The notes under the pieces were generated by a model, which was given only the letters and a program-made list of their open reading frames with translations, was not told where the DNA came from and searched no databases. From NCBI GenBank assembly GCA_022703425.1, contig JAKLDQ010000001.1, positions 36,243 through 100,242 on the forward strand: DNA of 64,000 nt, read 5' to 3'. The stretch's first letter is position 1. Each line of letters begins with the position of its first letter. Made by a program: the position numbers and the translations under genes. Of this stretch, positions 24,009 to 44,209 are shown piece by piece. The stretch is from Patescibacteria group bacterium (GTDB lineage Bacteria; Patescibacteriota; Minisyncoccia; Minisyncoccales; Staskawiczbacteraceae).

Positions 24009-24014
24009 GTTTTG

Positions 24015-24085
24015 TCGGGATATTGGGATTTGAACCCAAACTAAATCCACCCCATGGACTCGTGCTACCGTTACACTATATCCCG
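24015..24085 (-). tRNA. tRNA-Pro, anticodon GGG; no encoded CCA
   Basis: hand-folded cloverleaf: acceptor CGGGATA/TATCCCG; U8; D-loop with GG; anticodon loop AUGGGGU; T-arm TTGGG-TTCAAAT-CCCAA; C1-G72 and A73 typical of tRNA-Pro. Confidence 0.75.
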
Positions 24086-26164: not shown

Positions 26165-28252
26165 TTGTTTAAAATTATGCCTCGTAAACATCCTTTAGAC
26201 AAACTAAGAAATATCGGAATTATTGCTCACATCGATGCTGGAAAGACAACTTTCTCTGAGCGTCTTTTGTTTTACACCGGAGTTTCCCACAAAATCGGAG
26301 AAGTACACGAGGGAGAGGCAGTCATGGACTGGATGGTTCAGGAAAGAGAGAGGGGAATTACAATCACCTCCGCTGCCACGACAATGTATTGGAAAGATTA
26401 CCAGATAAACCTTATTGATACCCCCGGACACATCGACTTTACCGCCGAGGTTCAGAGGTCTCTAAGAGTTTTGGACGGCGCGGTTGTCGTATTTGACGGA
26501 GTTGCCGGAGTTGAGCCTCAGTCAGAAACAGTATGGAGACAGGCAGACAAATATTCTGTTCCAAGAATGTGCTTTGTTAACAAGCTGGACAGAATGGGAG
26601 CATCTTTCGACAAGAGCTTTGATTCAATTTTAAAAAAACTGACCCCGAATGCAGTTGCTATTGAAATTCCGATGGGTGTTGAAGAAAAAATGTCAGGTGT
26701 GATTGATCTGCTTAAAATGAAAGCATTGTATTTTGAAGGCGAAAAAGGAACAACAGTTGTAGAAAAAGAAATTCCGGAGGAATTTAAGGCAGAAGCTGAA
26801 AAATGGCACAAAATCGCAGTTGAAAAAATCGCAGGCGACGACGACATTCTTACAGAAAAATTTTTGGAGGGAAAAGAAATTTCTTTGGAAGAATTGAAAG
26901 CCGCTTTGAGGCGCGCAGTTCTTGCTTATAGGCTGGTTCCGGTTTTGTGCGGAACAGCACTGAAAAACAAGGGAGTCCAGCCCGTTTTGGATGCAGTTGT
27001 TGATTATCTTCCTTCTCCATTGGATTTGCCCGCACAAAAAGGAACAGATCCGAAAACAGCAGCTGTTATAGAAAGAAAGGCAGATGACAACGAACCGTTT
27101 GCCGCTTTGGTTTTTAAAATCGCAGCAGACCCTTATGTGGGAACTCTTACATATTTCAGGATTTATTCGGGAGTTTTGAAAAAGGGATCTTATGTTTTAA
27201 ATGCAAATACAGGAGAACAGGAAAGAATTGCCAGAATTTTGAGGATGCACGCCGATTCAAGGCAGGAATTGGACGAACTTTATGCCGGAGAAATCGGAGC
27301 AACTGTCGGATTGAAGGCAACAAACACAGGACACACTCTTTGTGAAAAGACAGCTCCTGTAATTCTGGAGAAAATCGTATTTCCAGAGCCCGTTATCGGA
27401 ATCAGAGTGGAGCCGAAAACAAAAGCCGACCAGGAGAAACTTATTATGTCTATCAGGAAGCTCACAGAAGAAGATCCGACTTTCAGAATCAAAGAGGACC
27501 TGGAAACAGGAGACACTGTTATTTCCGGAATGGGAGAACTGCACTTGGATATTATTGCCGACAGATTGAGGAGAGAGTTCCATGTTGACGCAAACTACGG
27601 AAGACCGCAGGTTGCATACAAAGAAACAATTTTGGCCGAAGCCAATGGTGAAGAAAAATATGTAAGGCAGTCGGGAGGAAAGGGACAATACGGACACGTA
27701 TTGCTGAAAATCAAGCCGAAAGAGAGGGGAGCGGGATTTGAATTCATCGATGAAATCAAGGGAGGAGCAATTCCAAAAGAATTTATCGCTCCTGTTGAAA
27801 AAGGAGTAAAAGAAGCAATGGACAAAGGAATCGTTGCAGGATATCCGATGGTTGATGTTGAAGTTACGCTTTATGACGGAAGCTATCACGATGTTGACTC
27901 ATCTGAATTCGCTTTCAAGATTGCAGGATCTATGGCATTCCAGAAAGCGGCCAAAGCTGCAAAACCGATCATACTTGAGCCGGTCATGAAAACAGAGGTT
28001 ATTACTCCGCCGGATTTCTTCGGACAGGTTATTTCTGATTTAAGTTCAAGAAGAGGAAAAATCGAAGAAACATCAGAAAGAGTCGGGATGAAAGTCATCG
28101 ATGTAATGGTTCCATTGTCTGAAATGTTTGGATATGCAACAGGATTGAGATCTCTCACAGAAGGAAGGGCGAGCTTTACAATGGAATTTGACCACTATGA
28201 ACAGGTGCCAGCTAATGTGGCACAAGAGATTATAGACGGAAAAAGACAGTAA
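26165..28252 (+). CDS. fusA: elongation factor G
   Basis: AHIDAGKTT; DTPGHIDF; NKLD; full EF-G domain set. Confidence 0.95.
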
Positions 28253-28268
28253 ACTCTAATAAGTAAAA

Positions 28269-28294
28269 ATGCGCACGAAAATGCGCATTTTTTG
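28269..28294 (+). terminator. fusA rho-independent terminator
   Basis: ATGCGCACGAAAATGCGCAT followed by TTTTTT. Confidence 0.7.
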
Positions 28295-28310
28295 TTGAAA
28301 ACTAAAATTT

Positions 28311-28630
28311 GCCGAACGGCTCACTCCGCCAGGGCACCAGTGCAATATTAGGAATCAGATTTAGAATACAAAAAATGAGCTGATTTCAAGACGCAGCGAG
28401 GAGGTTGTGCAAAGTGTTTGCACATCGACGAAGCTGTAACGACGAAATCAGCCATTTTTTGTATTCCCTTCGGGGCGGGCCAATTACAGCAATCTTCTGC
28501 GTTGCTCGTCGCGAACGATGCATTTCTCGCTGCATCAGTTCGCTTCCTCGCGCCTTGAAATATTGCTGTAATTGGCTCCGCTAAATTGATTCTAATATTG
28601 TACTGGCGCCCTAGGAGCCGTTCGGGTTTT
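28311..28630. repeat. ~320-bp nested-palindrome element: ~45-bp imperfect terminal inverted repeats enclosing two internal ~100-nt hairpin arms; MITE-like or structured RNA
   Basis: CCGAACGGCTCACTCCGCCAGGGCACCAGTGCAATATTAG versus CTAATATTGTACTGGCGCCCTAGGAGCCGTTCGG; inner pairs GAATACAAAAAATGAGCTGATTTC/GAAATCAGCCATTTTTTGTATTC and GGGCCAATTACAGCAAT/ATTGCTGTAATTGGCTCC. Confidence 0.5.
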
Positions 28631-28639
28631 GTAAAAAAA

Positions 28640-28671
28640 GAGCCCCGTAGTATACCTATGGGGCAAAAAGT
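28640..28671 (-). terminator. rho-independent terminator of the minus-strand DUF4177 operon
   Basis: minus-strand GCCCC-13nt-GGGGC followed by TCTTTTTTT. Confidence 0.6.
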
Positions 28672-28704
28672 CTTTGTCTTGCGACTCAGATACATATATT
28701 TACT

Positions 28705-29010
28705 TTACTCCTGACCGGAATATTCCTCGCCGGGAGCCAAAGCTTGGTAATTCTTCCAGAGATCCCTCCGCATCTCCTCAGGGGAGGGAAGTTCTGATAA
28801 AGATTCCTCCGCTTCCTCAATCAGAGTGTGTCCGACGGAGGATGGTGTTTGCACTGCGGACGGATCGGGAACTTCGCGAATCAAGACGTAAACGAGCTCA
28901 CTTCTTGAAATGGTGACTTTCCATCCGTTCTTTTCATCTTTGCCTAATATCTTCCGGGAAATTTCCGGAGGCGTATCGATTGGCAGACGAATCTCTTTTG
29001 TTTCTTTCAC
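28705..29010 (-). CDS. DUF4177-like paralog 4 (partial similarity)
   Basis: GWKVTISRSELVYVLIREVPDPS shares the GW...IxEREVP(E/D) signature with the three upstream paralogs. Confidence 0.45.
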   Translation of the reverse strand: MKETKEIRLPIDTPPEISRKILGKDEKNGWKVTISRSELVYVLIREVPDPSAVQTPSSVGHTLIEEAEESLSELPSPEEMRRDLWKNYQALAPGEEYSGQE

Positions 29011-29112
29011 CGCGTTCTCCTTTCTTCGCCCGCCGTAGCTTTAGCGAAGGCGCGCTTTGACCAAAGTAGCTTGCGAAGGCGGGTTTTGTTGAGTTTGTCG
29101 GACCCGATGAGA

Positions 29113-29697
29113 CTATTCAAAGCCTCCGGGTTTTAGCTCCGAAAGCTGTCCAAGGGTCATCTCTCTTGTTTTGCTGTTCGGATTTACCTCCACTTTTCCC
29201 GGAGTTCTTTCAAAGTGTTCTCTGGGAATATCCCGGACAACAATTTCCTCGTCGGGCGGACGATCAAATTCGGGGATAGGTCCCCAAAATCTCTGGTCTC
29301 CTAATACTGGAAACCACCTGTTGCAACCAATTAAGAGATATTGTCCGCGTACCACTTTTACAATTTCTATTTCAGGTTCCTCTCCAATTTCTGTGAAATA
29401 ATATCCGTTGTCTGGACTTGTAGCCCTTTCAAGATTCGCCCAAACGGACTCCGGCTGTTCAATCCGGAATTTTCCGTCGTCACCGATAACTCTGCGCTCG
29501 ACAACCGTTTCGGGTGCGGGCGTTTTCGTTTCTGGAACTTCGCGCTCCATTAGAATAAATGAATCGTTGTAGAGAAACGAGCAGAGGGGTGGCACTATGC
29601 GCCATCCTTCCTTTGCCGCTGAATTCAGCTCTTTTGCCCAGTCATCGCTATCTGGACTGCCAAACGGCCGCAAGATTTTGTATTCTACCTTACTCAT
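29113..29697 (-). CDS. DUF4177-like domain protein with ~130-aa C-terminal extension (paralog 3)
   Basis: VEYKILRP...WAKELNSAAKEGWRIV...FILMEREVPETK; AAGGAG RBS. Confidence 0.55.
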   Translation of the reverse strand: MSKVEYKILRPFGSPDSDDWAKELNSAAKEGWRIVPPLCSFLYNDSFILMEREVPETKTPAPETVVERRVIGDDGKFRIEQPESVWANLERATSPDNGYYFTEIGEEPEIEIVKVVRGQYLLIGCNRWFPVLGDQRFWGPIPEFDRPPDEEIVVRDIPREHFERTPGKVEVNPNSKTREMTLGQLSELKPGGFE

Positions 29698-29720
29698 TGC
29701 AATCTCCTTTTTTTTATAGA

Positions 29721-30041
29721 TTAAAGCGGCCTTAGGCCAGAGTGCATTTGCCGGAAATGATCATCCAGATCACCCGGAAAACGCTTCTCGCAAAGCTGAC
29801 AATACATCTCGTATTCTGGCGAAGCCAGTTCCGGTAAGGCCGTTTCGGGAACCTCGCGCTCGAGAGTTGCAATATAAGCGAGAGTTGTCCCAGTTTCTCG
29901 AACCTTCGCTCCGGGAAAAACAGCTGAAAAAATAACCTTGTAGCCATTATTTGCCAATACATTCAGCGCTTTTTCGAACGATGTCGCGCCTTCTTCGGCT
30001 ACGCACTTGTATTCGTATCTTTTCATTGGGTTCTCCTTCAC
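29721..30041 (-). CDS. DUF4177-like domain protein with C-terminal C2H2-like zinc-finger motif (paralog 2)
   Basis: YEYKCV...FEKALNVLANNGYKVI...ATLEREVPETA; CQLCEKRFPGDLDDHFRQMH. Confidence 0.55.
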   Translation of the reverse strand: MKENPMKRYEYKCVAEEGATSFEKALNVLANNGYKVIFSAVFPGAKVRETGTTLAYIATLEREVPETALPELASPEYEMYCQLCEKRFPGDLDDHFRQMHSGLRPL

Positions 30042-30253
30042 ATTCCTGTGTCACAACCAGCAAACGCGTCGTGAGGTGTTGCGCCTTTCGGACGCTTGAA
30101 AACGAAGACGGTGACGTTCGGAGTGTGGCTGGTAATTGAGCGAAGTTCTGAAGAGGTTGTTAGCTCCCAGCCTTGCTCTCCAAACTTGTCGAGTTCTTTC
30201 TCAAGATCTTCCTGATCGTAAGTAAGTCGTTGACACATGTACTCCCACCTCAT
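30038..30253 (-). CDS. DUF4177-like small protein (paralog 1)
   Basis: MRWEYMCQRL...LEKELDKFGEQGWELTTSS...VFVFKRP matches the canonical DUF4177 pattern (WEYK...EELEkkLNeLGeeGWELV...FKRP). Confidence 0.6.
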   Translation of the reverse strand: MRWEYMCQRLTYDQEDLEKELDKFGEQGWELTTSSELRSITSHTPNVTVFVFKRPKGATPHDAFAGCDTGM

Positions 30254-30330
30254 TATTTTCTCCTTTCGAAAACGAGAAGACAGAGTACAAATAGGGCGAA
30301 AGCCATTGCAATCGTTTCTGCCATGTTCAT
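30253..30330 (-). CDS. 25-aa hydrophobic leader peptide MNMAETIAMAFALFVLCLLVFERRK, overlapping the next gene by TAATG
   Basis: perfect AAGGAGGG Shine-Dalgarno 5 nt upstream of the ATG; directly downstream of the near-consensus promoter. Confidence 0.4.
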   Translation of the reverse strand: MNMAETIAMAFALFVLCLLVFERRK

Positions 30331-30388
30331 AAAAACCCTCCTTGGTCAGAGAAATCCTAAAAAGATTTTCAAAATGCTAAGTGGCTGA

Positions 30389-30417
30389 TTTATATCATCT
30401 TTAATGGTTATTGTCAA
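30389..30417 (-). promoter_or_regulatory. near-consensus sigma70 promoter TTGACA-17-TATAAA on the minus strand, driving the island operon
   Basis: reverse complement reads TTGACAATAACCATTAAAGATGATATAAA. Confidence 0.5.
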
Positions 30418-30560
30418 TGTATAAAATCTGATGCTTTTTAGTTGTTGACTTGGCAAAAAATATAGGTTATTATTACTTTAAGTTTTGCTTTACAGGAATT
30501 TGTTAAAATTCCGAAATTTTTGTAAAGCAGAGGTTTTGTTTTTCCGACACCCAAAACGGG

Positions 30561-30589
30561 TTGACGGATTACAAAAAATATAATAATAT
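30561..30589 (+). promoter_or_regulatory. candidate tuf promoter TTGACG-17-TAATAT
   Basis: read directly; ~90 nt upstream of the tuf ATG; a second candidate TTGACT-17-TATTAT lies at 30445-30473. Confidence 0.35.
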
Positions 30590-30678
30590 AAGTTCATATT
30601 AAATTCCAGATTCGAAATCGCAAATCACTCTATGTAATTTGTAGATTGTAATTTGGAATTTCGTAAATAAAAAATAAT

Positions 30679-31894: not shown

Positions 31895-31935
31895 CACCTG
31901 CCAAGGTTATACAATTTTGGCAGGTGCTCATTTTT
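31895..31935 (+). terminator. hairpin followed by a T-tract between tuf and rpsJ (terminator/attenuator)
   Basis: CACCTGCCAA...TTGGCAGGTG followed by CTCATTTTT. Confidence 0.5.
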
Positions 31936-31966
31936 CGCAAGAAAAATGTATTTTATATAATTTATT

Positions 31967-32365
31967 ATGCCAGCTAAAAAGACAACTAGCAGGAAAAAAC
32001 CTACGAAAGCTTCATCTGTTAAGACTCAGGACACAGAAAAGAAGGCTGAGGGTACTCCGGAGCTGTCAAAGCTTCGGATTAAGCTTCGCGCTTATGACCA
32101 CAAAATTATCGATAATTCTGCAAAACAGATTATTGATATTGCAAACCGCTACGGAGTAGAGGTTGTGGGACCGGTTCCCTTGCCTACTGAGATTCTGAAG
32201 TACACCGTCAACAGATCGACCTTTGTGCACAAGAACGCCAGAGAGCAGTTCGAAATGAGGGTTCACAAGAGGGTTATCGATATTCTTAGCCCGAATGCTG
32301 AAATCATAGAAGCATTGAGAGATTTGAATCTCCCGTCAGGTGTTGACATTGCGATAAAAATTTAA
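31967..32365 (+). CDS. rpsJ: 30S ribosomal protein S10 with N-terminal Lys-rich extension
   Basis: IRIKLRAYDHK...LPT core. Confidence 0.9.
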   Translation: MPAKKTTSRKKPTKASSVKTQDTEKKAEGTPELSKLRIKLRAYDHKIIDNSAKQIIDIANRYGVEVVGPVPLPTEILKYTVNRSTFVHKNAREQFEMRVHKRVIDILSPNAEIIEALRDLNLPSGVDIAIKI

Positions 32366-32504
32366 TAAGATATGGTTATATTCTAACCATAAGAAATTAG
32401 AGCGATAGTTAACTTTTCCATGGATATTTTTTAAAGAAAATATTACAGGAATAACAACATTGCCGGACTGGGCAAGTTGCCCAGTTTTTATTAACAGCGA
32501 CAGT

Positions 32505-33101
32505 ATGAAATTCATATTAGGACAAAAAATTGGAATGTCTCAGTTGTTCAACAAAGAAGGCAAATTGGTGCCTGTTACTTTGGTTTCCGCAGGTCCTTGC
32601 TATATTCTCCAGAAAAAAACAAAAGAGAAAGACGGATATTCAGCCCTTCAGGTTGGTTTTGTTAGGATAGAAAAGAAAAACAAAATAAAGAAAACAATGA
32701 AGGGGAAGGAATATAAACATATTAAAGAAAACAGAATTGAATCCGGCGATGATATTAAGGTCGGTGACGAGGTTAGCGTTTCAGTATTTGAAGAGGGCGA
32801 TAAGGTGAAAGTTTCCGGAATTTCAAAAGGAAAGGGATTTCAGGGAGGCGTCAAAAGGCACGGATTTCACGGAAGAAACAAGACGCACGGAGTAAAACAC
32901 GAACAAAGAACAATCGGTTCAACCGGGAGGCGTTTTCCGCAGCACGTGCAGAAAGGAAGAAAGATGCCTGGCAGAATGGGATATGAAAGAATAAGCGTCA
33001 AGAATTTAAAAATTGAGAAAATCGATAAAGAAAACAATATTTTAATATTAAGAGGAGCAGTTCCCGGACACAGGGGCACATTGCTGGAGATAAGAGCATA
33101 A
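32505..33101 (+). CDS. rplC: 50S ribosomal protein L3
   Basis: KIGMSQLF; FQGGVKRHG. Confidence 0.9.
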   Translation: MKFILGQKIGMSQLFNKEGKLVPVTLVSAGPCYILQKKTKEKDGYSALQVGFVRIEKKNKIKKTMKGKEYKHIKENRIESGDDIKVGDEVSVSVFEEGDKVKVSGISKGKGFQGGVKRHGFHGRNKTHGVKHEQRTIGSTGRRFPQHVQKGRKMPGRMGYERISVKNLKIEKIDKENNILILRGAVPGHRGTLLEIRA

Positions 33102-33102
33102 T

Positions 33103-33732
33103 ATGAAAGCTGATGTTTACAGCCAGAAAGGCGAAAAGGTGGGAGAAATTTCTCTTCCAAAAGAAATATTTGAGGTAAAGCTCAACGCTGATTTGGTTCA
33201 CCAAGTTCTTGTTTCGCAGATGGCAAACAAGCGCCAGGTTTCTGCTCACACAAAATTCAGAGGAGAAGTTTCGGGTGGCGGGAAGAAGCCATGGAGGCAA
33301 AAGGGAACAGGAAGGGCAAGACATGGATCAATAAGATCGCCGTTGTGGAGAGGAGGAGGAGTCACATTCGGTCCGAGAACGGAAAGAGTGTTTGAACGCG
33401 AAATCCCAAAGAAAATGAGAAGAAAAGCCTTGCTTATGGTTCTTTCCGAAAAAGCAAGGAATAAAGTTTTGATTGTAATGGACGAATTAAAAATGGAATC
33501 ACCCAAGACGAAAGAAATTGCAAAGGCATTAAAAAAACTTCCGGCAAACGGAAAAAGCCTGCTCATTGCTCTTCCGCAGTATGATAAGAATGCTTTTTTG
33601 TCTGCAAGAAACATTAAGAAAACAGCTGTCGAGGACGCAAGAAATTTAAATGTTGCAGATTTGTTACAGTATAAATATTTATTAATGACAAAGGACGGAA
33701 TAAAGACAATTGAGAAAACTTTTAAGGTTTAA
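33103..33732 (+). CDS. rplD: 50S ribosomal protein L4
   Basis: PWRQKGTGRAR. Confidence 0.9.
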   Translation: MKADVYSQKGEKVGEISLPKEIFEVKLNADLVHQVLVSQMANKRQVSAHTKFRGEVSGGGKKPWRQKGTGRARHGSIRSPLWRGGGVTFGPRTERVFEREIPKKMRRKALLMVLSEKARNKVLIVMDELKMESPKTKEIAKALKKLPANGKSLLIALPQYDKNAFLSARNIKKTAVEDARNLNVADLLQYKYLLMTKDGIKTIEKTFKV

Positions 33733-33736
33733 AGAC

Positions 33737-34207
33737 ATGGCAGCACTATTTGATTTTTTAAAAAAGAAGGATGCAACTGAAAAAGCAAGGGAAGGGAAAA
33801 AAACTCCGGCAAAAAGAAAACAGCCGAAAACCGAAAAAGCGGTAAAAAGGGATGAGAAAAAGGAACCAGCAGTACAGGAGCCGAAAAAAGAGGTTGCAAA
33901 AATGACAAGCGTGAAGCAGAAAAAAACCTACGGTTTTTCTTATGATATTGTTAAAGAGCCCCATATTTCGGAAAAGGGATCCATTTTATCAGAAAAAAAC
34001 CAGTATATTTTTAGGACAATAGACGGAGCGAATAAAACAGAGATAAAAAAGGCAATTGAAGGAATTTACGGAGTGGATGTTTTGTCGGTAAATATTGTTA
34101 AAATTCCGGCAAAAAAAAGGAGACTCGGAAGGACGCAGGGATACAGAAAGGGATATACAAAAGCTTTTATTAAAATAAAGGAAGGACAAAAAATAGAGAT
34201 AATATAA
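33737..34207 (+). CDS. rplW: 50S ribosomal protein L23 with Lys-rich N-terminal extension
   Basis: IVKEPHISEK...TIDGANKTEIK. Confidence 0.85.
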   Translation: MAALFDFLKKKDATEKAREGKKTPAKRKQPKTEKAVKRDEKKEPAVQEPKKEVAKMTSVKQKKTYGFSYDIVKEPHISEKGSILSEKNQYIFRTIDGANKTEIKKAIEGIYGVDVLSVNIVKIPAKKRRLGRTQGYRKGYTKAFIKIKEGQKIEII

Positions 34208-34255
34208 TGCAATCCTTCGCTCAAGATCTGAGCTCAGGATAATTCGTTCACAATC

Positions 34256-35083
34256 ATGAAGTCATATAAACCAACAACTCCATCCAGAAGAGGAATGACA
34301 GGAATTGATTTCTCCCAGCTTACAAAAAAGAAAGCAGAGAAAAGTCTTTTGAAATACGTCAGAAGGAGCGTTGGAAGGTCAAAATCTTCGGGCAGAATAA
34401 CAACAAGGCACAAGGGAGGAGGAGTTAAAAAACTATACAGAATTGTTGAATTTTCCCAGACAAGACTAAATAGCCCGGCAAAAGTGATAGCATTGGAATA
34501 CGATCCAAACAGGACTGCTTTTATTGCATTGATTGAATATGCAGACAAAACAAAGCAGTACATAATTGCTCCGCAGGAACTGAAAGTTGGAAACGAAATT
34601 ATTTTTGCAGAAAAGGCCGCTTTAAATCCCGGAAACAGAATGCATGCAAAACATATTCCTGTTGGAATTTCGGTTTATAATGTTGAATTAGAATCAGGTA
34701 AGGGGGGTAAAGTTGTGCGGTCAGCGGGATCATCGGCTCAGATATTGGCGCAGGAGGAAAACTATACGACAATAAAAATGCCATCGACAGAAGTAAGAAA
34801 AATTAAAAATGATTGCTTCGTTTCAGTTGGAATGGTTTCCAATCCGGAAAACAGGTTTTACAGAGTAGGAAAGGCGGGAAAATCCAGATTGAAGGGAAGA
34901 AGGCCTCACGTCAGGGGATCTGCAATGAATCCGGTAGACCATCCGCATGGAGGAGGAGAAGGAAGACAGCCGATTGGATTAAAGCATCCGAAAACACCCT
35001 GGGGAAAACCTGCTTTGGGCGTAAAAACAAGAAATAAGAAAAAGTGGACAAATAAATTCATTATTCAAAGAAGAAAGAAGTAA
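34256..35083 (+). CDS. rplB: 50S ribosomal protein L2
   Basis: [23 protein letters not shown]. Confidence 0.95.
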
Positions 35084-35084
35084 T

Positions 35085-35414
35085 ATGGCAAGAAGTCTTA
35101 AAAAAGGACCATATATAGACCAGAATTTGCTCGAAAAGGTTTTGAAATTGAGAAAAGACGAAAAAATTATCATCAAAACCTGGGCAAGAGCTTCTACAAT
35201 TTCGCCTGAAATGGTCGGGTATACATTTGGAGTGCATAATGGGAAAGAATTCGTGCCCGTTTACGTTTCAGAAGATATGGTTGGCCATAAACTTGGAGAG
35301 TTTGCGCCTTCAACAAAGTTTGGAAGGCATGGAGGAAAAATGCAGAGGGAAATCGAAGCTGGAGCAGAACAAAAAGCGGCAGCAAAAGTAGAAACGCCGG
35401 CAGCAAAGAAATAG
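35085..35414 (+). CDS. rpsS: 30S ribosomal protein S19
   Basis: [12 protein letters not shown]...[10 protein letters not shown]. Confidence 0.95.
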
Positions 35415-35431
35415 AATTTCAATAAACAAAC

Positions 35432-35914
35432 ATGGAAGTCAAAGCATCATTAAATTATTTAAGAATAGCCCCAAGAAAAGTCAGACAGGTTGCAGATTTG
35501 GTCCGGGGAAAAAAAACGGAAGAAGCAAGGACTATTCTCGAGTTTGCAATAAAAAGAGGAGCCAATCCTGTTTTGAAGCTTTTGAATTCTGCGGTCGCAT
35601 CCGCTAAACATGATTTTCATTTGCAGGAATCGAACTTGTTTGTTTCGCAGATTATGGTTAACGAAGGGCCGACATTGAAGAGATGGCACCCGATGTCGCG
35701 CGGAAGAGCTTACCCCATAATGAAGAGAAGCTCGCACATTATACTTATATTAAAAGATAATTCAGTTGTTGAAGAAAAAAAGGTTGAAGCGGCAAAGATC
35801 GAGGATAAACCGAAAACCGAGAAAAAAATAAAGAAAACAGTCAAATCGGCAAAAATAGAAACAAAGAAAACTGAAAAACCAAAGAGAACAAGAAAAACAG
35901 CAGTAAAAAAATAA
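35432..35914 (+). CDS. rplV: 50S ribosomal protein L22 with Lys-rich C-terminal tail
   Basis: RIAPRKVRQVADLVRGK. Confidence 0.9.
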   Translation: MEVKASLNYLRIAPRKVRQVADLVRGKKTEEARTILEFAIKRGANPVLKLLNSAVASAKHDFHLQESNLFVSQIMVNEGPTLKRWHPMSRGRAYPIMKRSSHIILILKDNSVVEEKKVEAAKIEDKPKTEKKIKKTVKSAKIETKKTEKPKRTRKTAVKK

Positions 35915-35917
35915 ATT

Positions 35918-36565
35918 ATGGCACACAAAGTCCATCCAAAATCATTTAGAATAAGGGGAACAGAAGACTGGAACATCAGAGGCTTTTATGGCAAAAAAAT
36001 GCCCCAGTTTTTGATGGAAGATTTTTTGATTAAGGACTTTCTGATGAAAAAATTGGCTGAGGCTTCAGTGTCCAATATTGAAATTGAGCATTCGGCAAAT
36101 AAATTAAATATAATTATTTCCACAGCAAGGCCCGGTTTGATTATTGGCAGAGGCGGAGGCGGGGTAGATACGCTCAAAAAAGCAATTGAAAAGAAAATAG
36201 GAAAAAAAGAAGGTAAAAGAGAAATAAAAATTGAAATCAGAGAAATTAAGAATCCCTGGGGATCTGCTTCATTGGTCGCTCAATTTGCAGCCCAGCAGAT
36301 CGAAAAGCGTATTCCGTTTAGGCAGGTTTTGAAAGGTTCAATTGAAAAAGTAATGCAAAACAGGGACGTCAAAGGAGTCAGGGTTGAAGCATCCGGAAGG
36401 TTAAACGGAATTGAAATTGCCAGAAAAGAATGGCTCAGACAGGGAAAACTTCCCAGAAACACAATCAGAGCAGACATAGATTATGCGCAGGCGGAAGCTC
36501 ACTGCACTTATGGAAAAATCGGAATAAAAGTCTGGATTTACAAAGGAGATAAATTCGATAAATAA
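35918..36565 (+). CDS. rpsC: 30S ribosomal protein S3
   Basis: KH domain; GIKVWIYKG. Confidence 0.95.
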   Translation: MAHKVHPKSFRIRGTEDWNIRGFYGKKMPQFLMEDFLIKDFLMKKLAEASVSNIEIEHSANKLNIIISTARPGLIIGRGGGGVDTLKKAIEKKIGKKEGKREIKIEIREIKNPWGSASLVAQFAAQQIEKRIPFRQVLKGSIEKVMQNRDVKGVRVEASGRLNGIEIARKEWLRQGKLPRNTIRADIDYAQAEAHCTYGKIGIKVWIYKGDKFDK

Positions 36566-36582
36566 ATTAGAAGAACAAAGAT

Positions 36583-36999
36583 ATGGCAATAATGATGCCC
36601 AAAAAAGTAAAGCACAGAAAGTGGCACAAGGGAGTGACCAGAGGAGTTGAAACACGCGCGACCGAGGTTGCTTTTGGCAGCTATGGATTAAAATCCCTTG
36701 GAACAAAATGGATTACCGCCAGACAGCTTGAATCTGCAAGAAGGCACATTATCAGATACTTAAAAAAGGGAGGAAAGCTTTGGGTCAGGGTATTTCCGGA
36801 CAAGCCGGTAACATTTAAGGGCGCGGAGGTGGCCTTGGGAGGAGGAAAAGGAGCTGTTGACCACTATGTTTATCCGATAAAACCCGGCAGAATTATTTTC
36901 GAGCTTGACGGATTAAAAGAAGAGGTTGCCAGAGAAGCGTTTAAAGGTGCAGGCAATAAGTTGCCAATTAAGACAAAATTTGTTAAAAAGGAGAATTAA
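36583..36999 (+). CDS. rplP: 50S ribosomal protein L16
   Basis: MPKKVKHRKWHKG. Confidence 0.95.
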   Translation: MAIMMPKKVKHRKWHKGVTRGVETRATEVAFGSYGLKSLGTKWITARQLESARRHIIRYLKKGGKLWVRVFPDKPVTFKGAEVALGGGKGAVDHYVYPIKPGRIIFELDGLKEEVAREAFKGAGNKLPIKTKFVKKEN

Positions 37000-37007
37000 T
37001 TGCGAAT

Positions 37008-37193
37008 ATGAAAACAGCCGAATTAAGAAAAAGAGACAGGAAAGAGCTTGAAAAGCAGGTTTATGATCTGAAGAAAAAACTGAATGATATCAGGTTTAAG
37101 TTTTCGTCGAATAAATTAAAGAATGTAAAGGAAGTGAAGGATACGAAGAAAGATGTTGCGAGGATATTAACCATTCTTAAAGAGCAAAAGTAA
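37008..37193 (+). CDS. rpmC: 50S ribosomal protein L29
   Basis: ELRKRDRKELEKQVYDLKKKL. Confidence 0.85.
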   Translation: MKTAELRKRDRKELEKQVYDLKKKLNDIRFKFSSNKLKNVKEVKDTKKDVARILTILKEQK

Positions 37194-37194
37194 T

Positions 37195-37440
37195 ATGCCA
37201 AAAAGAAAATTATCAGGTGTAGTTGTTTCAAACAAGATGCAAAAGACAATCGTTGTTGAAGTTGAAACAATGAAAGAACACCCAAAATACAAAAGAAGAT
37301 ATAAGGTCCACAACAGATACAAAGCTCATGATGAAAAAGGAGAATATTTAATGGGCGACAGGGTTGTGATAGAAGAAACAACGCCAATTTCAAAAGACAA
37401 AAAATGGAAAGTTATACAAAAGATTAATCCGACCAAATAG
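37195..37440 (+). CDS. rpsQ: 30S ribosomal protein S17
   Basis: GVVVSNKMQKTIVVEV. Confidence 0.9.
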   Translation: MPKRKLSGVVVSNKMQKTIVVEVETMKEHPKYKRRYKVHNRYKAHDEKGEYLMGDRVVIEETTPISKDKKWKVIQKINPTK

Positions 37441-37447
37441 CAAAGGT

Positions 37448-37816
37448 ATGATTCAATTAAGGTCAATGCTAAAAGTTGCCGATAACTCAGGTGCAAAAAT
37501 AGTGCAATGCATTAATGTACCCGGGGGAACAAGAAAGCGTTATGCTCAGCTGGGAGACATTATTGTTGGCGTGGTTAAAAAAGCAGAACCGAGAAAAATT
37601 GTAAAAAAGCACGAAAAAGTCAAAGCAGTAATTATCAGGCAAAAAAAAGAGTTTAAGAGAGCTGATGGATCTTATATCAGATTTGACGATAACGCGGTTG
37701 TTGTTTTAGGCGACGGAAAAATGCCGAAGGGGGGAAGAGTATTCGGTCCCACAGCAAAAGAATTAAGAGAAAAAGGTTTTGAAAAAATAGCGATGATGGC
37801 ATCTGAATTGCTTTAA
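37448..37816 (+). CDS. rplN: 50S ribosomal protein L14
   Basis: MIQLRSMLKVADNSGAK. Confidence 0.95.
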   Translation: MIQLRSMLKVADNSGAKIVQCINVPGGTRKRYAQLGDIIVGVVKKAEPRKIVKKHEKVKAVIIRQKKEFKRADGSYIRFDDNAVVVLGDGKMPKGGRVFGPTAKELREKGFEKIAMMASELL

Positions 37817-37820
37817 AAAC

Positions 37821-38126
37821 ATGAAAGTTAAAAAAGGAGACAATATTTTAGTAATTACCGGGAAAGACAAGGGTAAGACGGGAAAGGTTTTAAGGGCTCT
37901 TCCAAAGGAGAGAAAGGTTTTGATTGAGGGAGTAAATATGAAGGTCCATAATATCAGGCCGAAAAAACAAGGTGAAAAAGGGCAGATAGTGAAAGTTCCG
38001 GCCCCGATTTTTACATCGAATGTCAAGGTCATCTGTTCAAAGTGCGGAAAGGCAGTGAGGGTCGGATATAAGATAGAGGGAGACAAAAAGGACAGAATCT
38101 GCAAAAAATGCGGGCAAAGCACATAA
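37821..38126 (+). CDS. rplX: 50S ribosomal protein L24 with C-terminal zinc-ribbon extension
   Basis: KOW motif VKKGDNILVITGKDKGKTGKV; CSKCGK...CKKCG. Confidence 0.9.
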   Translation: MKVKKGDNILVITGKDKGKTGKVLRALPKERKVLIEGVNMKVHNIRPKKQGEKGQIVKVPAPIFTSNVKVICSKCGKAVRVGYKIEGDKKDRICKKCGQST

Positions 38127-38158
38127 CTCGCAGGCAAACGGAAATTATTTGAGAAAAC

Positions 38159-38728
38159 ATGAAAAGCTTAAAAGAAAAATTTCAAAAAGAGGTAATACCG
38201 CAAATGATGAAGGAAATGGGATTTAAAAATCCTATGGCTGTTCCGAGGATAAAGAAAGTTGTTTTAAATACCTCATTCGGAAGGGAAGTTGTGGTCAAAA
38301 CCTCAGGAGAGAGGGAAAAATTATATAAACTGGTTACTCAGGACTTGGGTTTGATTGCCGGACAAGCGCCGGTTTTGACAAAGGCAAAAAAATCAATCGC
38401 CGGTTTTAAGCTGAGGGAGGGCCTTCAGATTGGAGCCAAAGTCACATTAAGAAAAGACAGGATGTGGGATTTTCTGGAAAGATTGATTTATTTGTCATTG
38501 CCAAGATCGAGGGATTTTAAGGGAATTGATCCCAAAAATATTGATAAAAACGGAAATCTGACAATTGGATTTAAAGAACACATTTCGTTCCCTGAAATAT
38601 TTACCGAAAAAGAAAAAACAATTATCGGACTGCAAATTACAGTATCGACAAACGCGAGGAGCAAAAAGGAAGGACTGGCATTATATAAATTTTTAGGATT
38701 TCCGATGAAAGAGGAAAAAAATAAATAG
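38159..38728 (+). CDS. rplE: 50S ribosomal protein L5
   Basis: L5 core; position in the spc operon. Confidence 0.9.
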   Translation: MKSLKEKFQKEVIPQMMKEMGFKNPMAVPRIKKVVLNTSFGREVVVKTSGEREKLYKLVTQDLGLIAGQAPVLTKAKKSIAGFKLREGLQIGAKVTLRKDRMWDFLERLIYLSLPRSRDFKGIDPKNIDKNGNLTIGFKEHISFPEIFTEKEKTIIGLQITVSTNARSKKEGLALYKFLGFPMKEEKNK

Positions 38729-38779
38729 TAATCCTTCGCCTTGTCGGCTCAGGATGAATTATTACTTCGTTCATAATTC

Positions 38780-38965
38780 ATGGCAAAAACATCACAAATT
38801 GCAAAATCAAATAAAAAGCCAAAGTTTTCATCCAGAAAGGTGAACAGATGTTTTAAGTGCGGAAGAAGGCACGGTTATATGAGAAAGTTCGGCCTTTGCA
38901 GAATCTGTTTTAGAGAACTTGCTAATAAAGGAGAAATTCCGGGAGTTAAAAAATCAAGCTGGTAA
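38780..38965 (+). CDS. rpsN: 30S ribosomal protein S14 type Z (zinc-binding)
   Basis: [20 protein letters not shown]. Confidence 0.95.
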
Positions 38966-38969
38966 AAAT

Positions 38970-39359
38970 ATGACAGACCCAATAACAGACATGTTAAACC
39001 AAATAAGGAATGCCGAAGCCGTGCAGAAGGCCGAAGTGGTTTTGCCTTATTCAAGGTTAAAATTTGAAGTTGCAAAAATACTGATGCAGGAAAATTTTAT
39101 TTCTGACGTCAAAAAAGTTGCCAAGGGCAAAGCAAAAACAATGAAAATTGTTTTAAAATATGAAAATGGAGTGCCAGGAATCGCGGGATTGAAAAAGATT
39201 TCAAAGCCCGGCCAACGAATTTATCAAAAACATTCAGAATTGAAATACGTAAAGGGCGGATATGGCATTGCAGTTATTTCAACACCCAAGGGATTAATGA
39301 CAAACAAAGATGCAAAAAAAGCAAAATTGGGAGGGGAGGTGCTGTGCGAAATCTGGTAG
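38970..39359 (+). CDS. rpsH: 30S ribosomal protein S8 (start trimmed to MTDPITDML)
   Basis: DPITDMLNQIRNA; GGEVLCEIW. Confidence 0.9.
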   Translation: MTDPITDMLNQIRNAEAVQKAEVVLPYSRLKFEVAKILMQENFISDVKKVAKGKAKTMKIVLKYENGVPGIAGLKKISKPGQRIYQKHSELKYVKGGYGIAVISTPKGLMTNKDAKKAKLGGEVLCEIW

Positions 39360-39407
39360 GAAGGCACTCGCCTGTGAAGCTATATAATATCATAATACAA
39401 CAATATC

Positions 39408-39959
39408 ATGTCACGAATAGGAAAAAGACCAATTGAAATTCCGGTAGGGATAACATTAGAAATCAAGGATGAAAATTTAAAGGTTACAGGTCCGAAAGGA
39501 ACCCTCGATTTGAAGTTGAACAGAGAAATCAATGTTGAGCAAAAGGACAATCAGGTTTTGGTTTCAATAAGGCAAGAAACTGCCACCGGAAAAGCAAGCG
39601 CTTTGTGGGGGTTATACAGGGTTCTTATTTCTAACATGATAGAGGGAGTTTCAAAGGGTTTTGAAAAAAAACTTGAAATTGAAGGAGTAGGATTTAAGGC
39701 CGCGGTTCAGGGAGATGAATTGGTTTTAAATCTTGGATTTGTAAATCCGGTAAAGGTTAAAAAACCGGCAGGCATTAATTTTCTTGTTGAAAAGAACGTT
39801 ATTACCGTTTCCGGAGCGGACAAACAGGCTGTCGGGGAAATAGCAGCCATTATAAGAAAACAGAAGAAAGCAGAACCCTACAAAGGCAAAGGAATTAAAT
39901 ATCAGGGCGAAAAAATAAGAAGAAAGGAGGGTAAGAAAGTTGTATCATCTAAAAAGTAA
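39408..39959 (+). CDS. rplF: 50S ribosomal protein L6
   Basis: MSRIGKRPIEIP. Confidence 0.95.
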   Translation: MSRIGKRPIEIPVGITLEIKDENLKVTGPKGTLDLKLNREINVEQKDNQVLVSIRQETATGKASALWGLYRVLISNMIEGVSKGFEKKLEIEGVGFKAAVQGDELVLNLGFVNPVKVKKPAGINFLVEKNVITVSGADKQAVGEIAAIIRKQKKAEPYKGKGIKYQGEKIRRKEGKKVVSSKK

Positions 39960-39962
39960 AAC

Positions 39963-40310
39963 ATGTTAACCAAAAAGGAAAAACGCGTAAAACGCCATAT
40001 AAGAGTCAGAGCAAAGATAAGTGGAACAAAAATCCGCCCGAGGCTTTGTGTTGCAAGGTCTGCAAATCACATCTATGCCCAGCTTATTAATGATGAAAAT
40101 GCAAAAGTGATAGCATCGGCTTCCGATAAAGAGCTTAAAAATGCAAAAGGAGACAAAAAAGCGCTGGCAAGAGAGGTTGGGAAGCTGATTGCAAAAAAGG
40201 GATTAGAAAATAAAATCGAAAAAGTTGTTTTTGACAGAGGAGGAATCGTTTTTCACGGCAGAGTAAAAGCTCTTGCCGAAGGCGCCAGGGAAGGCGGGCT
40301 AAAATTCTAA
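39963..40310 (+). CDS. rplR: 50S ribosomal protein L18
   Basis: [16 protein letters not shown]. Confidence 0.9.
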
Positions 40311-40321
40311 TATAAAAAGCT

Positions 40322-40933
40322 ATGGAAGAAAAAATAGAACAGAAAAATTCTAACCAGCAGACCGGAGTTCCGGCAAAAGACGGCTTTAAGCCGTATGGAA
40401 CCGGCCCGATGCAAAAATCACATGGGCGCGGATTTGGCGGAGGAAGAGGAGGAAATCGCGGTCCACGGAGAGACCAGGTAAGGGATGAATTCGATTCCAA
40501 GCTTTTGGATTTGGCCAGGGTTACAAGGGTTACCGGCGGCGGAAAGAGATTGAGGTTTAGAGCTGTAGTTGTGGCGGGAGACAAAAAAGGAAAAGTGGGA
40601 ATCGGAATTGATAAAGGCAAAGATGTTTCACAGGCAATAGAAAAAGCAACAAGAAGAGCAAAGAAAAACCTTATTAGCGTTGCTGTAATGGATGGAACAA
40701 TTCCTCACGAGGTGGAGGCAAAAATCGGTCCGGCAAGGATTTTGCTCAGACCGCAAAAAAAAGGAAGAGGACTTGTTGCCGGAGGAGCAGTCAGAATTAT
40801 TTGCGATCTCGCGGGGATAAAAAATGTTTCTTCCAAGATTTTGTCTGGTTCAAAAAACAAGTTGAATAACGCAAGAGCAACAATGGAAGCGTTAAGAAAA
40901 TTAAAAGCTGAGCAATCAAAGCAGGCAAAATAA
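40322..40933 (+). CDS. rpsE: 30S ribosomal protein S5 with Gly/Arg-rich N-terminal extension
   Basis: LRFRAVVVAGDKKGKVGIGIDKGKDVSQAIEKA. Confidence 0.9.
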   Translation: MEEKIEQKNSNQQTGVPAKDGFKPYGTGPMQKSHGRGFGGGRGGNRGPRRDQVRDEFDSKLLDLARVTRVTGGGKRLRFRAVVVAGDKKGKVGIGIDKGKDVSQAIEKATRRAKKNLISVAVMDGTIPHEVEAKIGPARILLRPQKKGRGLVAGGAVRIICDLAGIKNVSSKILSGSKNKLNNARATMEALRKLKAEQSKQAK

Positions 40934-40934
40934 T

Positions 40935-41366
40935 ATGCAGTTACACGAATTACAGCCAAAACACAAAGCAAAAGGGAAAAAGAGAGTTGGCAGAGGCGGA
41001 AGAAAAGGAACTTATTCAGGAAAAGGAAATAAGGGCCAGAGCTCAAGAGCCGGAAGAAAAATGGTGCCAATTATCAGAGAGCTTATTAAAAGGTATCCTA
41101 AATTGAGAGGATACAGAAGGTTTAAGCTGGACGATTATTCAGCTGTGTTAAATTTGGATGTTTTGGAAAAGCACGTTAAAGCCGGTGAAACCGTAAATCC
41201 TGAAAATTTGATAAAAATGGGATTAGTGCGTATGATAAGAGGAAGAGTTCCCGAAATAAAGATTCTTGGAAACGGAAAAATCTCAAAAAAAATAACAGTT
41301 GAAAACTGCAAAGCTTCAAAATCAGCAAAGGAGGCGATTGAAAAAGCAGGAGGGAACGTTAAGTAG
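40935..41366 (+). CDS. rplO: 50S ribosomal protein L15 (directly follows rpsE; no rpmD)
   Basis: LHELQPKHKAKGKKRVGRGGRKG. Confidence 0.9.
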   Translation: MQLHELQPKHKAKGKKRVGRGGRKGTYSGKGNKGQSSRAGRKMVPIIRELIKRYPKLRGYRRFKLDDYSAVLNLDVLEKHVKAGETVNPENLIKMGLVRMIRGRVPEIKILGNGKISKKITVENCKASKSAKEAIEKAGGNVK

Positions 41367-41425
41367 GCAATGAAACCCTTCCATTTTAAAATGTCAGGGT
41401 AATTTATTCGCTTCGCTCACAAATT

Positions 41426-42703: not shown

Positions 42704-42758
42704 CCTAACGGTTAAAAAGTTTTTGATTATTTAACAAATTTTTTAATTTTTAAATAAA

Positions 42759-43460
42759 ATGTCAAAGCAAGTTGTAATTTTATTCGGCCAGCCCGGGGCA
42801 GGAAAGGGAACGCAGGCAGAAATATTGGCAGACAAAACGGGATTCTATCATTTTGAATCCAGCAAAGTTATTGAGGCAAGCTTTGTCGAGTTTCCCCCCG
42901 AAAAGACTTTTGAAATTGAAGGCCAGACCTATAAAATAGAGGACGAAAAGAAAAGATGGGAAGCCGGATTGCTTAACAGTCCGCCTTTCGTTGTCTATTT
43001 GATGACCGAAAAAATAAAGGAGCTTGCCGACATGGGCAAATCCATTATTTTTTCCGGTTCTCCTAGAACTCTTTACGAGGCAGAAAGGGAAATCCCGCTC
43101 TTGAAGGAATTATACGGAGCAGAAAACATAAGATTTGTAATGCTCGAAATATCAGCCGAAACTACAATTTTCAGAAACTCAAACAGAAGAATTTGCGAAT
43201 TAATAAGGCATTCAATTCTTTTTAATAAGGAAACCGAGCAGTTGTCAGAATGCCCGCTTGACGGATCAAAACTTGTAAGAAGGAAAAAGCTTGATGATCC
43301 TGAAACAATAAAAACAAGACTGGAGATTTATAAAGAACAAACCTTTCCTGTCTCTCAATTTATTGAGAAAGAGGGCTTGCCCGTTCATAAAGTAAATGGC
43401 GAGCAGACAGTCGCGGAAGTTTTTGCAGACGTATTAAAGGCAGTAGAATCAAAGCAGTAA
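42759..43460 (+). CDS. adk: adenylate kinase
   Basis: LFGQPGAGKGTQA; Zn lid C...CPLDG. Confidence 0.85.
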   Translation: MSKQVVILFGQPGAGKGTQAEILADKTGFYHFESSKVIEASFVEFPPEKTFEIEGQTYKIEDEKKRWEAGLLNSPPFVVYLMTEKIKELADMGKSIIFSGSPRTLYEAEREIPLLKELYGAENIRFVMLEISAETTIFRNSNRRICELIRHSILFNKETEQLSECPLDGSKLVRRKKLDDPETIKTRLEIYKEQTFPVSQFIEKEGLPVHKVNGEQTVAEVFADVLKAVESKQ

Positions 43461-44207: not shown

Positions 44208-44209
44208 TA

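Follow-up and report, generated by a model that had tools for sequence, protein, structure and literature searches.

What kind of element is the nested palindrome that follows fusA in contig JAKLDQ010000001.1 of the patescibacterial assembly GCA_022703425.1? Here, we analyzed this palindrome at positions 28311-28630 of a 64,000-nucleotide stretch of the contig (the window), in which the order is rpsL-rpsG-fusA, the palindrome, an island of four small minus-strand open reading frames (ORFs) at 28705-30253, and tuf with the S10 operon. A sequence-only reading of the window had placed the palindrome correctly, as inverted-repeat searches and folding confirm, and had proposed that it is a MITE (miniature inverted-repeat transposable element), an insertion scar marking the boundary of the island, or an independently transcribed structured RNA. 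We conclude, with a probability of about 0.6, that positions 28314-28623 are one copy of a non-autonomous, mobile or duplicative palindromic DNA repeat that is MITE/REPIN-like and represents a new family in the Patescibacteria (candidate phyla radiation, CPR), with relatives annotated as Parcubacteria-group. This conclusion builds on the observations that the element is multi-copy within the species; that it is gained or lost precisely at otherwise conserved sites and lies, where an empty counterpart is comparable, in the loop or center of a short pre-existing hairpin or palindrome; and that its pairing is upheld by compensatory change, with specific bulges and internal-loop sequences held constant.

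The element folds into a four-way junction

By aligning copies, we set the bounds of the repeated unit at 28314-28623 (310 bp); it contains a conserved core, AGGG...CCCT, at 28331-28612, which is 282 nt long in the window and 270-282 nt across copies. Based on inverted-repeat searches, the outer arms of the core (28331-28351/28592-28612) are 21 nt long and 90% complementary, and a pair of outermost arms (28312-28322/28615-28625) is complementary over 11 nt at 100%. Terminal inverted repeats are present, measuring 33 nt against 31 nt (28331-28363/28582-28612) plus the 9-bp GAACGGCTC/GAGCCGTTC. Inside them, the base of a hairpin A (28364-28377/28453-28466) is complementary over 14 nt at 100%, and that of a hairpin B (28479-28496/28559-28576) over 18 nt at 94%. 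Folded as RNA, the region reaches -163.1 kcal/mol on the plus strand, against -94.3 +/- 6.1 in shuffles (z -11.4), and -161.6 kcal/mol on the minus strand (z -17.2); folded as DNA, the plus strand reaches -97.4 kcal/mol (z -12.0). The predicted fold is a four-way junction of the outer stem, hairpin A, a mini-hairpin, and hairpin B, with essentially zero unpaired junction nucleotides. The two internal hairpins of ~100 nt within outer inverted repeats that had been described from the sequence are borne out, and the mini-hairpin with its UUCG loop is an addition to that description.

Along the plus strand, the unit opens with the left arm of the host, or outermost, hairpin (28314-28330), in which GAACGGCTC (28314-28322) is followed by ACTCCGCC and whose stem is as in three short hairpins elsewhere in the window. 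The 5' arm of the core outer stem (28331-28363, starting AGGGCACCAG) pairs with the 3' arm (28582-28612, ending CTGGCGCCCT) to form helix 1. Hairpin A (28364-28466, 103 nt; helices 2-4) has a basal stem, AAAAATGAG.TGATTT/GAAATCAGCCATTTTT with a bulged A, whose sequence is kept between lineages, and an apex of variable sequence in which pairing is retained. The mini-hairpin, CC-UUCG-GG with a 2-bp stem, occupies the center of the junction (28467-28474; helix 5) and is CCC-N3-GGG, with compensatory changes, in relatives. Hairpin B (28475-28581, 107 nt; helices 6-10) is conserved between lineages both at its base, GCGGG.CAATT/AATTG.CTCCGC with a bulged T, and in the internal-loop motifs CGTTG(C/T)TCGTCGC and CGCCTTGAA. 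Hairpins A and B and the 3' arm of the outer stem are each supported by inverted repeats, the fold, and covariation. The unit closes with the right arm of the host hairpin, AG followed by GAGCCGTTC (28613-28623), directly after which all copies diverge.

On the plus strand, the internal loops are purine-rich in hairpin A (0.61-0.62 purine) and pyrimidine-rich in hairpin B (0.35-0.38), and this asymmetry is conserved. Hairpin B is weakly similar to the reverse complement of hairpin A (z ~3.1 in the window copy and 1.7 in the copy of contig L095, described below); compared in the same orientation, the two hairpins match no better than shuffles (z ~0.8 and -0.3). Therefore, the element has an approximate dyad around the mini-hairpin, and either strand presents a similar fold.

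The sole sizeable ORF of the element (115 aa, minus strand, 28348-28695) has no homolog among 5.8 billion proteins and no Pfam match, in agreement with the earlier view that no credible ORF is present; a protein search with this ORF for mis-called copies gave no matches. Both terminators between which the element had been placed were found, and both lie outside the repeated unit. The intrinsic terminator of fusA (AAAAATGCGCA/TGCGCATTTTT followed by a T-run; plus strand, 28265-28292) is an 11-nt perfect inverted repeat upstream of the repeat, and the terminator of the island genes (GAGCCCCGTAG...CTATGGGGC with A/T runs on either side; minus strand, 28640-28664) is part of the other flank. The element itself, with a stem of ~150 bp, is far beyond the norms of an intrinsic terminator, i.e., a short GC-rich stem-loop plus a U-run.

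The element is present in several contexts within the species

The EF-G encoded in the window is 77% identical to that of a Patescibacteria metagenome-assembled genome (MAG) and 60-66% identical to those of Parcubacteria-group MAGs, and an identical protein is found in anaerobic-digester metagenomes; these matches point to an uncultured CPR bacterium as the host. In the contigs of this species (contigs and loci are given as L numbers), which is represented in the digester samples 3300010429, 3300009838, ERZ761563, and ERZ27257456, the element has at least three right flanks and at least two left flanks. It lies between fusA and the island in the window and L003; between fusA and genes for an ABC transporter, DUF4015, and RNase Y in L001, L002, and L005; between a gene for an HtrA-like protease and the island in L008, where the element begins just 6 nt after the protease stop codon; and before a pyrB-like gene in L007. 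Another three contigs (L004, L006, and L090) stop inside the element, as expected for a repeat. The copies are 96.7-98% identical to each other, and their flanks diverge exactly at 28314 and 28623; in L001, L002, and L005, the match to the window stops at exactly 28623, and its last ~100 nt hold 5 substitutions. The flank that holds the fusA terminator is replaced by different sequence in the HtrA-side copy, and, in L001 and L007, something else stands in place of the flank with the island terminator. GGGTTTTG follows the window copy and TCTTATTTTATT that of L095, but no T-run follows those of L001 and L007. Because other copies are not beside the island, and the far end of the island (30254-30678) holds no copy, the proposal of an insertion scar marking the island boundary is not supported.

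The contigs with fusA-element-island and those with fusA-element-ABC encode identical EF-G. In sister species with an HtrA that is 85-86% identical, the gene order is HtrA...DUF4015, a 173-aa ORF, and RNase Y, and the HtrA site has plain terminators without the element. Based on this synteny, the native second locus would most simply be HtrA-element-ABC-DUF4015-RNase Y, and the element at the HtrA locus appears to be an insertion lacking in relatives. The two copies, E1 and E2, do not differ over a stretch of at least 113 nt, and the fusA-element-ABC (L001:8138-8447) and HtrA-element-island (L008:662-971) contigs represent either assembly paths that switched within this stretch or a real reciprocal rearrangement; the presence of the fusA-ABC junction in three independent assemblies keeps the latter among the possibilities. 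A real rearrangement would separate fusA from tuf in some strains, and the consequences for binning and phylogenomics are the same for chimeras.

A DNA scan of the genome collection with the terminal-repeat consensus AGGGCRCCAGTRCAATRTTAG gave no matches and, therefore, the species representative either is without the element or is not in that collection; a metagenome scan with the same consensus returned only 2 contigs. Conserved-motif patterns had no matches in viral contigs, and neither did blastn in distant mode in phage and plasmid collections. We rejected a candidate diverged second copy at 48197-48503 as an AT-rich chance match inside coding sequence. Among the tuf contigs of the species, all of which carry the island, none has an empty fusA-tuf site, and the closest relative (L009) is too diverged for comparison.

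Diverged homologs maintain the fold by compensatory change

Among 80 fusA-centered loci from GTDB genomes, one (L030) matched the element. L030 is from Candidatus Yanofskybacteria RIFCSPLOWO2_01_FULL_42_49, the EF-G of which is 63% identical. At L030:2191-2464, the same outer stem, hairpin A, mini-hairpin, and hairpin B are present; the stem sequences differ from those of the window, while the blocks at the base of A, at the base of B, and in the internal loop of B are kept, the base-of-B block in the fuller form GGGCGGG.CAATT/AATTG.CTCCGCT with the bulged T. Ten further copies lie in contigs with a 91%-identical Ndk (nhmmer E 1e-57 to 1e-36), and one more (L109) is from a further species; with all filters off, nhmmer found every copy having the conserved blocks. 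The ten Ndk contigs have one common left flank, by construction because they were retrieved via the gene on that side, and at least five different right flanks; in the Yanofskybacteria contigs, the M50 gene and the element are followed by rpsL, by other genes, or by Pterin_4a/RadC/type I restriction genes. Where the outer arms do not match, the fold is poorer (-114 to -129 kcal/mol versus -136 kcal/mol in intact copies); these contigs are therefore chimeras between paralogous copies, and the family is multi-copy in Yanofskybacteria too. This Yanofskybacteria population is represented in the samples 3300025311, 3300025317, and ERZ27254752. The element is missing from the ndk-rpsL region of other Yanofskybacteria, and its distribution is patchy. 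Downstream of the Yanofskybacteria copies, we also observed genes for RadC, HsdR/HsdM/HsdS, DUF3800, and an OLD/AAA-like protein (L097:9450-16103; L098:9858-14932); the junctions to these defense genes run through chimeric copies, and so their linkage to the M50-rpsL locus is uncertain.

The variable flanks raise the alternative that the element is a recombination site, i.e., a folded attachment or crossover site, in the manner of attC or of folded single-stranded DNA (ssDNA) att sites, at which gene blocks are exchanged or inverted. One flank is constant and the other varies in both lineages, as illustrated by fusA-element-island versus fusA-element-ABC, with the reciprocal HtrA-element-island, and by the different genes beyond the M50-element junction; moreover, the fusA-element-ABC junction recurs between assemblies, and the conserved extrahelical bases and variable hairpin tips recall the logic of attC. 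However, paralogous copies together with assembly switching in the identical stretch are a simpler account of the flanks, the chimeric contigs with their mismatched outer arms fold worse, and the constant flank is constant by way of the retrieval. In addition, no integrase or recombinase gene adjoins any copy, and no second site bounds the island. We consider a recombination site quite improbable.

For the analysis of covariation, we used five intact copies (window, L030, L095, L096, and L109), a small sample of three to four independent lineages, from which RNAalifold derived a consensus of 105 pairs. The paired share of pair cells is 92.9%, compared with 87.1% in shuffles and 35-45% with slid partners. 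Both sides are changed in 25 of the 105 pairs, compared with 11.0 +/- 2.2 in shuffles (0 of 500 reach 25) and 2-7 with slid partners, a control that keeps relatedness and is also clearly exceeded. These changes are in the outer stem (helix 1; 9 pairs), hairpin A (7), the mini-hairpin (2 of the 3 pairs of helix 5), and hairpin B (7).

The results so far decide against the explanation that the palindrome is fortuitous, locally generated, or an assembly artifact. In its favor, the 64-kb window contains only one copy; however, the folding z-scores are -11 to -17, the element sequence is identical in five or more independent metagenome assemblies, and homologs with covariation exist in another lineage. 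This explanation is refuted. Of the checks that the sequence-only reading had called for, folding, covariation, and a search for other copies were positive, with the 25 of 105 pairs and the several contexts described above.

Two further observations concern the hairpins. In hairpin B of L109 (L109:12381-12419), there is an extra 27-nt mini-palindrome, CGGTTAGAGGCC-AG-GCCTCTAACCG, with the direct repeat CTCGTC around it, which splits the conserved CGTTGCTCGTCGC motif and makes for a palindrome inside the nested palindrome. A "swapped arm" likeness of hairpin A between lineages (GACGAAG and TTCAAGG) was rejected as chance, 7-mer matches being expected between 300-nt sequences.

The element occupies pre-existing hairpins or palindromes at the sites compared

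Filled and empty sites can be compared directly at the rpsL leader, where L030, L105, L109, and L112 have the hairpin GACC-loop-GGGTC and where, in L095, L096, and L101, a 274-nt core lies within the same hairpin loop with the promoter retained. At a second site, the 10-nt palindrome of L111 (AAGTT-AGG/CCT-AAG, with the slash at the junction) corresponds to a 306-nt copy in L109; the flanks are 90-94% identical, and both contigs are from one species. TTAGG is found at the junction of both empty sites (L030:4865-4882 and L111:2362-2376), which are two cases only. In the window, the core sits inside the GAACGGCTC...GAGCCGTTC hairpin, which has three unoccupied relatives elsewhere in the window. 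The element lengthens an existing hairpin rather than interrupting a gene or signal and, thus, is plausibly tolerated in the leader of an essential operon. This leader, as found at the head of the str operon in Yanofskybacteria, consists of a TTGACA-18-TA(T/C)ACT promoter, the GACC-loop-GGGTC hairpin, a U-run, and rpsL (L030:4832-4900; L105, L109, and L112); its hairpin could be a 5' stabilizer or an attenuator.

The motif AACGGCTCA occurs 7 times in the window, compared with 0.36 expected. That this outer-stem motif is shared with other hairpins had been noticed before; this is correct, and the element lies inside such a hairpin, but the others number three rather than two. On the plus strand, these are GAACGGCTCA - 17-nt loop - TGAGCCGTT followed by a T-run (6203-6239), downstream of a plus-strand gene; a perfect 28-nt palindrome with the halves GAACGGCTCACTTC and GAAGTGAGCCGTTC (45677-45704), the first 15 nt of which equal the left end of the HtrA-side copy; and AACGGCTCA - 8-nt loop - TGAGCCGTT followed by a T-run (46415-46442). 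Similar hairpins exist at L092:6407-6434 (the sister species) and, for Yanofskybacteria, at L030:2635-2689 and L097:9927-9954, and AACGGCTCA-type hairpins are missing from ~1 Mb of other loci. As a family, they are terminator-like, with the stem (G)AACGGCTCA/TGAGCCGTT(C) and unrelated loops, and the stem is kept across CPR lineages with EF-G ~63% identical; in L030, a stem of this type caps a perfect 26-bp hairpin. Candidate reasons for the conserved stem are a REP-like repeat, a protein site, or a preferred target of the element.

Folded DNA or transcribed RNA

Is the fold maintained as DNA or as RNA? In the Yanofskybacteria copies, 98-100 of the ~105 pairs are Watson-Crick, and the 1-4 G-U and 0-2 A-C pairs show no strand bias. 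The energies of the two strands are nearly equal (-156.0 versus -155.2 kcal/mol for the window copy and -136.7 versus -135.2 kcal/mol for L030), and substitutions between copies give wobble pairs equally often on either strand. A one-strand RNA gene fits this pattern less well than does a DNA element that acts while folded, be it as a single strand or as a cruciform.

The alternative is a functional structured RNA, i.e., a multi-copy noncoding RNA or a cis-acting untranslated region (UTR) element made from the plus strand by read-through or from host promoters. In such an RNA, the junction and internal loops would bind protein or nucleic acid, and the element would be a stabilizer, processing site, attenuator, or guide/scaffold. 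The covariation supports the fold; bulged or unpaired nucleotides and internal-loop motifs are common to lineages in which EF-G is only 63% identical; and the loop of the window copy's mini-hairpin, read on the plus strand, is a C(UUCG)G tetraloop. Gene orientation is followed wherever a co-directional neighbor exists, i.e., after fusA, HtrA, ndk, and M50 and before rpsL, Pterin_4a, and the pyrB-like gene. Also, in L095, a consensus TTGACA-18-TATACT promoter ends ~12 nt upstream of the element, which makes the transcription of this copy as the rpsL 5' leader unavoidable. However, the same promoter is present at empty sites and is therefore most simply the rpsL promoter of the host rather than one of the element's own. 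The window copy lies downstream of the fusA terminator with no evident promoter before it, and a promoter scan of this copy found no outward or upstream promoter that reached threshold.

Further points count against an RNA. G-U pairs are nearly lacking and neither strand is the more stable, which is unusual for selection on one RNA strand. With the whole window searched against Rfam 15 at gathering thresholds, there was no match on the element; in a search of 28200-28750, even E <= 10 gave no match on the element body other than mir-556, at 18 bits against a gathering score of 84 bits, and the remaining weak matches fell mainly on the two flanking terminators. The presence/absence polymorphism and the lack of the element in close relatives speak against an essential housekeeping RNA, and the gene-orientation bias is inseparable from replication bias, given that ~90% of ORFs are on one strand (~62 of the 69 ORFs of at least 90 aa in the window are on the plus strand). 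Altogether, a functional RNA is possible, but we hold it to be rather unlikely: of the independently transcribed structured RNA that had been proposed, the conserved and covarying structure stands, while the near-pure Watson-Crick pairing, the lack of strand bias, and the lack of an Rfam family argue against the remainder.

The shape and a GAGCCG motif had also brought up a retron, which we rejected with no reverse transcriptase nearby, and domain V of a group II intron, which we rejected because the stem halves are in the wrong order and, again, no reverse transcriptase is nearby.

How a mobile palindromic repeat may work, and what weighs against it

For a mobile repeat, we suggest that a trans-acting, structure-reading recombinase or transposase encoded elsewhere would move the element. 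This enzyme would read the folded strand via the conserved base of hairpin A and the internal loops of hairpin B, and not via the terminal sequence, and would deliver it to the single-stranded loops of other hairpins. After insertion, the element would be a longer version of the host terminator or UTR hairpin in the mRNA and hence be tolerated. The near-perfect Watson-Crick arms suggest that copying or repair may template one arm on the other. As a dispersed repeat, the element would be expected to break short-read assemblies and may mediate rearrangements. Our confidence in any particular mobilizing enzyme is much lower than in the general claim of a mobile repeat.

A more specific version, which we put forward tentatively and regard as unlikely, is a structure-dependent mobile nucleic acid, in which the ~280-nt junction, as folded ssDNA or RNA, is inserted into hairpin loops. 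The agent may be an enzyme, or the element itself may be the RNA guide or scaffold of such a system; its recognition or catalytic core would be formed by the internal loops of hairpin B together with hairpin A's basal stem. Should the conserved loops prove to be the recognition site of a structure-specific recombinase or a functional RNA core, the element would open the way to a new mechanism of insertion that targets hairpins.

Several points weigh against a mobile repeat. There is no transposase, RAYT, or recombinase, and no Y1 transposase domain as in RAYT, among the scanned window proteins, i.e., those outside the ribosomal-protein block (~31900-45000) and apart from some small ORFs, and the mobilizing activity is purely one that we infer. 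Neither the window nor the ~1.3 Mb of loci that we fetched holds a related autonomous insertion sequence sharing the ends of the element. Target-site duplications are lacking around the window, L095, and L109 copies and at the empty sites, the flank pairing being uncertain for copies known only from chimeric contigs, and precise loss by replication slippage across the long palindrome could mimic "empty" sites. The terminal sequences differ between lineages with only the pairing kept, unlike classical transposase-bound inverted repeats, and the conserved asymmetric internal loops and the gene co-orientation fit a transcribed functional RNA equally well. Finally, the copy number derives from metagenome contigs, some of them chimeric through the repeat, with no complete genome, and it looks low, with at least three contexts here and at least five in Yanofskybacteria. 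The proposal of a MITE is upheld in its essentials by several near-identical copies, filled and empty sites, and the lack of coding capacity and is not upheld with respect to a target duplication and a conserved terminal sequence.

CPR/Patescibacteria genomes are tiny, and a mobile palindrome common to lineages with EF-G only 63% identical would show that small structured selfish DNA is carried by, and exchanged between, reduced genomes. Its landing sites include UTR hairpins of essential operons (in the rpsL leader and downstream of fusA), which it does not destroy. The element also breaks or mis-joins short-read assemblies at the str/S10 ribosomal locus that is used for CPR phylogenomics, as exemplified by the mis-joined or rearranged junctions of the fusA-element-ABC and HtrA-element-island contigs, and may drive real rearrangements.

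Neighboring features of the fusA copy

The island ORFs (101, 194, 106, and 71 aa), which have weak DUF4177 similarity, occupy the fusA-tuf interval and run against the direction of nearly all other genes. The DUF4177-like island is present in every tuf contig of the species and missing from L009. Two independent tuf contigs, L115 and L116, both stop inside the 194-aa island gene (near window position ~29280), which hints at a further repeat or a strain-variable point within the island. In L009 (EF-G 77%), the fusA stop codon is followed by ~200 bp of GC-rich, structured-looking sequence (L009:8077-8341) and then by a duplicated fragment encoding the EF-G C terminus (FNKYEVVPNNVAAQIIESRGK*). 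This arrangement suggests the integration of something at the 3' end of fusA; the sequence has no homology to the element, and an Rfam search of the L009 fusA-tuf spacer gave no match. The sole RNA gene detected in the 64 kb is that for tRNA-Pro (GGG) on the minus strand at 24014-24085.

Comparison with known systems

In our literature searches, we came across no account of dispersed palindromic repeats from CPR bacteria; we compared the element with systems from elsewhere. REPINs and REP-BIMEs are mobilized by RAYT transposases, and REPINs are single hairpins of ~60-110 nt present in tens to hundreds of copies in Proteobacteria (Bertels & Rainey 2011, PMC3116915; PMC3337134). In a REPIN, two short REP palindromes in inverted orientation make up the hairpin, and the repeats lie on both sides of a single-copy RAYT (Y1 transposase) gene. 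The element resembles REPINs and REP-BIMEs in being made of non-coding, extragenic, hairpin-forming inverted palindromic modules that are dispersed at gene ends, show compensatory pairing, and presumably work as folded single strands that are moved in trans; solitary REPs have their likeness in the short GAACGGCTCA hairpins. It differs from them in its length of 270-310 nt (3-5 times longer), its four-way junction with two 100-nt hairpins, its handful of copies, its patescibacterial hosts, and in that no RAYT gene was seen in the window proteins scanned.

Structured bacterial MITEs include the Correia elements of Neisseria, the enterobacterial ERIC/IRU, and the pneumococcal BOX (reviewed in PMC10969869). 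Like these, the element is small, gene-less, multi-copy, and intergenic, forms long hairpins when transcribed, is probably co-transcribed with neighbors, shows presence/absence polymorphism between strains, and may promote rearrangements. With less than ~500 bp, no coding capacity, several unrelated loci, and terminal inverted repeats, it has features by which MITEs are recognized. In contrast to them, it is without target-site duplication, its terminal repeats differ in sequence from lineage to lineage, no autonomous relative is known, its interior consists of two hairpins with conserved internal loops, and it sits in hairpin loops and not in a short target (TA).

Other systems share single traits with the element. 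IS1397/ISKpn1 (IS3 family) and IS110/IS1111 are autonomous, transposase-encoding, non-palindromic insertion sequences that target extragenic hairpins or palindromes; insertion into pre-existing extragenic hairpins is the likeness, and here only a passenger-less palindrome is seen. PATEs, which are non-autonomous derivatives of IS200/IS605, and attC sites are recombination substrates recognized as folded ssDNA. In IS200/IS605, both ends carry short (~20-nt) hairpins that are alike in sequence, a terminal inverted repeat is lacking, and the hairpins of a PATE are subterminal and on the same strand; attC sites are single hairpins of 57-141 nt with R''/L''-L'/R' boxes (RYYYAAC...GTTRRRY) in cassette arrays beside the integrase gene (intI). 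To these, the element is similar in its conserved structure and extrahelical bases, variable tips, lack of target duplication, and orientation bias relative to genes or replication, but neither anatomy is present. We rejected IS200/IS605 ends or a PATE because long complementary termini are present and hairpins A and B are not alike, and an attC site because there are no R/L boxes at the ends, no array (one copy per 64 kb), and no integrase nearby. The inverted terminal repeats of parvoviruses and adeno-associated virus are T-shaped A-B-B'-C-C'-A' hairpins at the termini of linear ssDNA, which replicates by a Rep-driven rolling-hairpin mechanism; the likeness is one of topology only, an outer palindrome around two smaller ones, whereas the element is a chromosomal dispersed repeat without associated genes. 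Altogether, while it fails membership in each of the families compared, the element works most like REPINs/BIMEs and structured bacterial MITEs.

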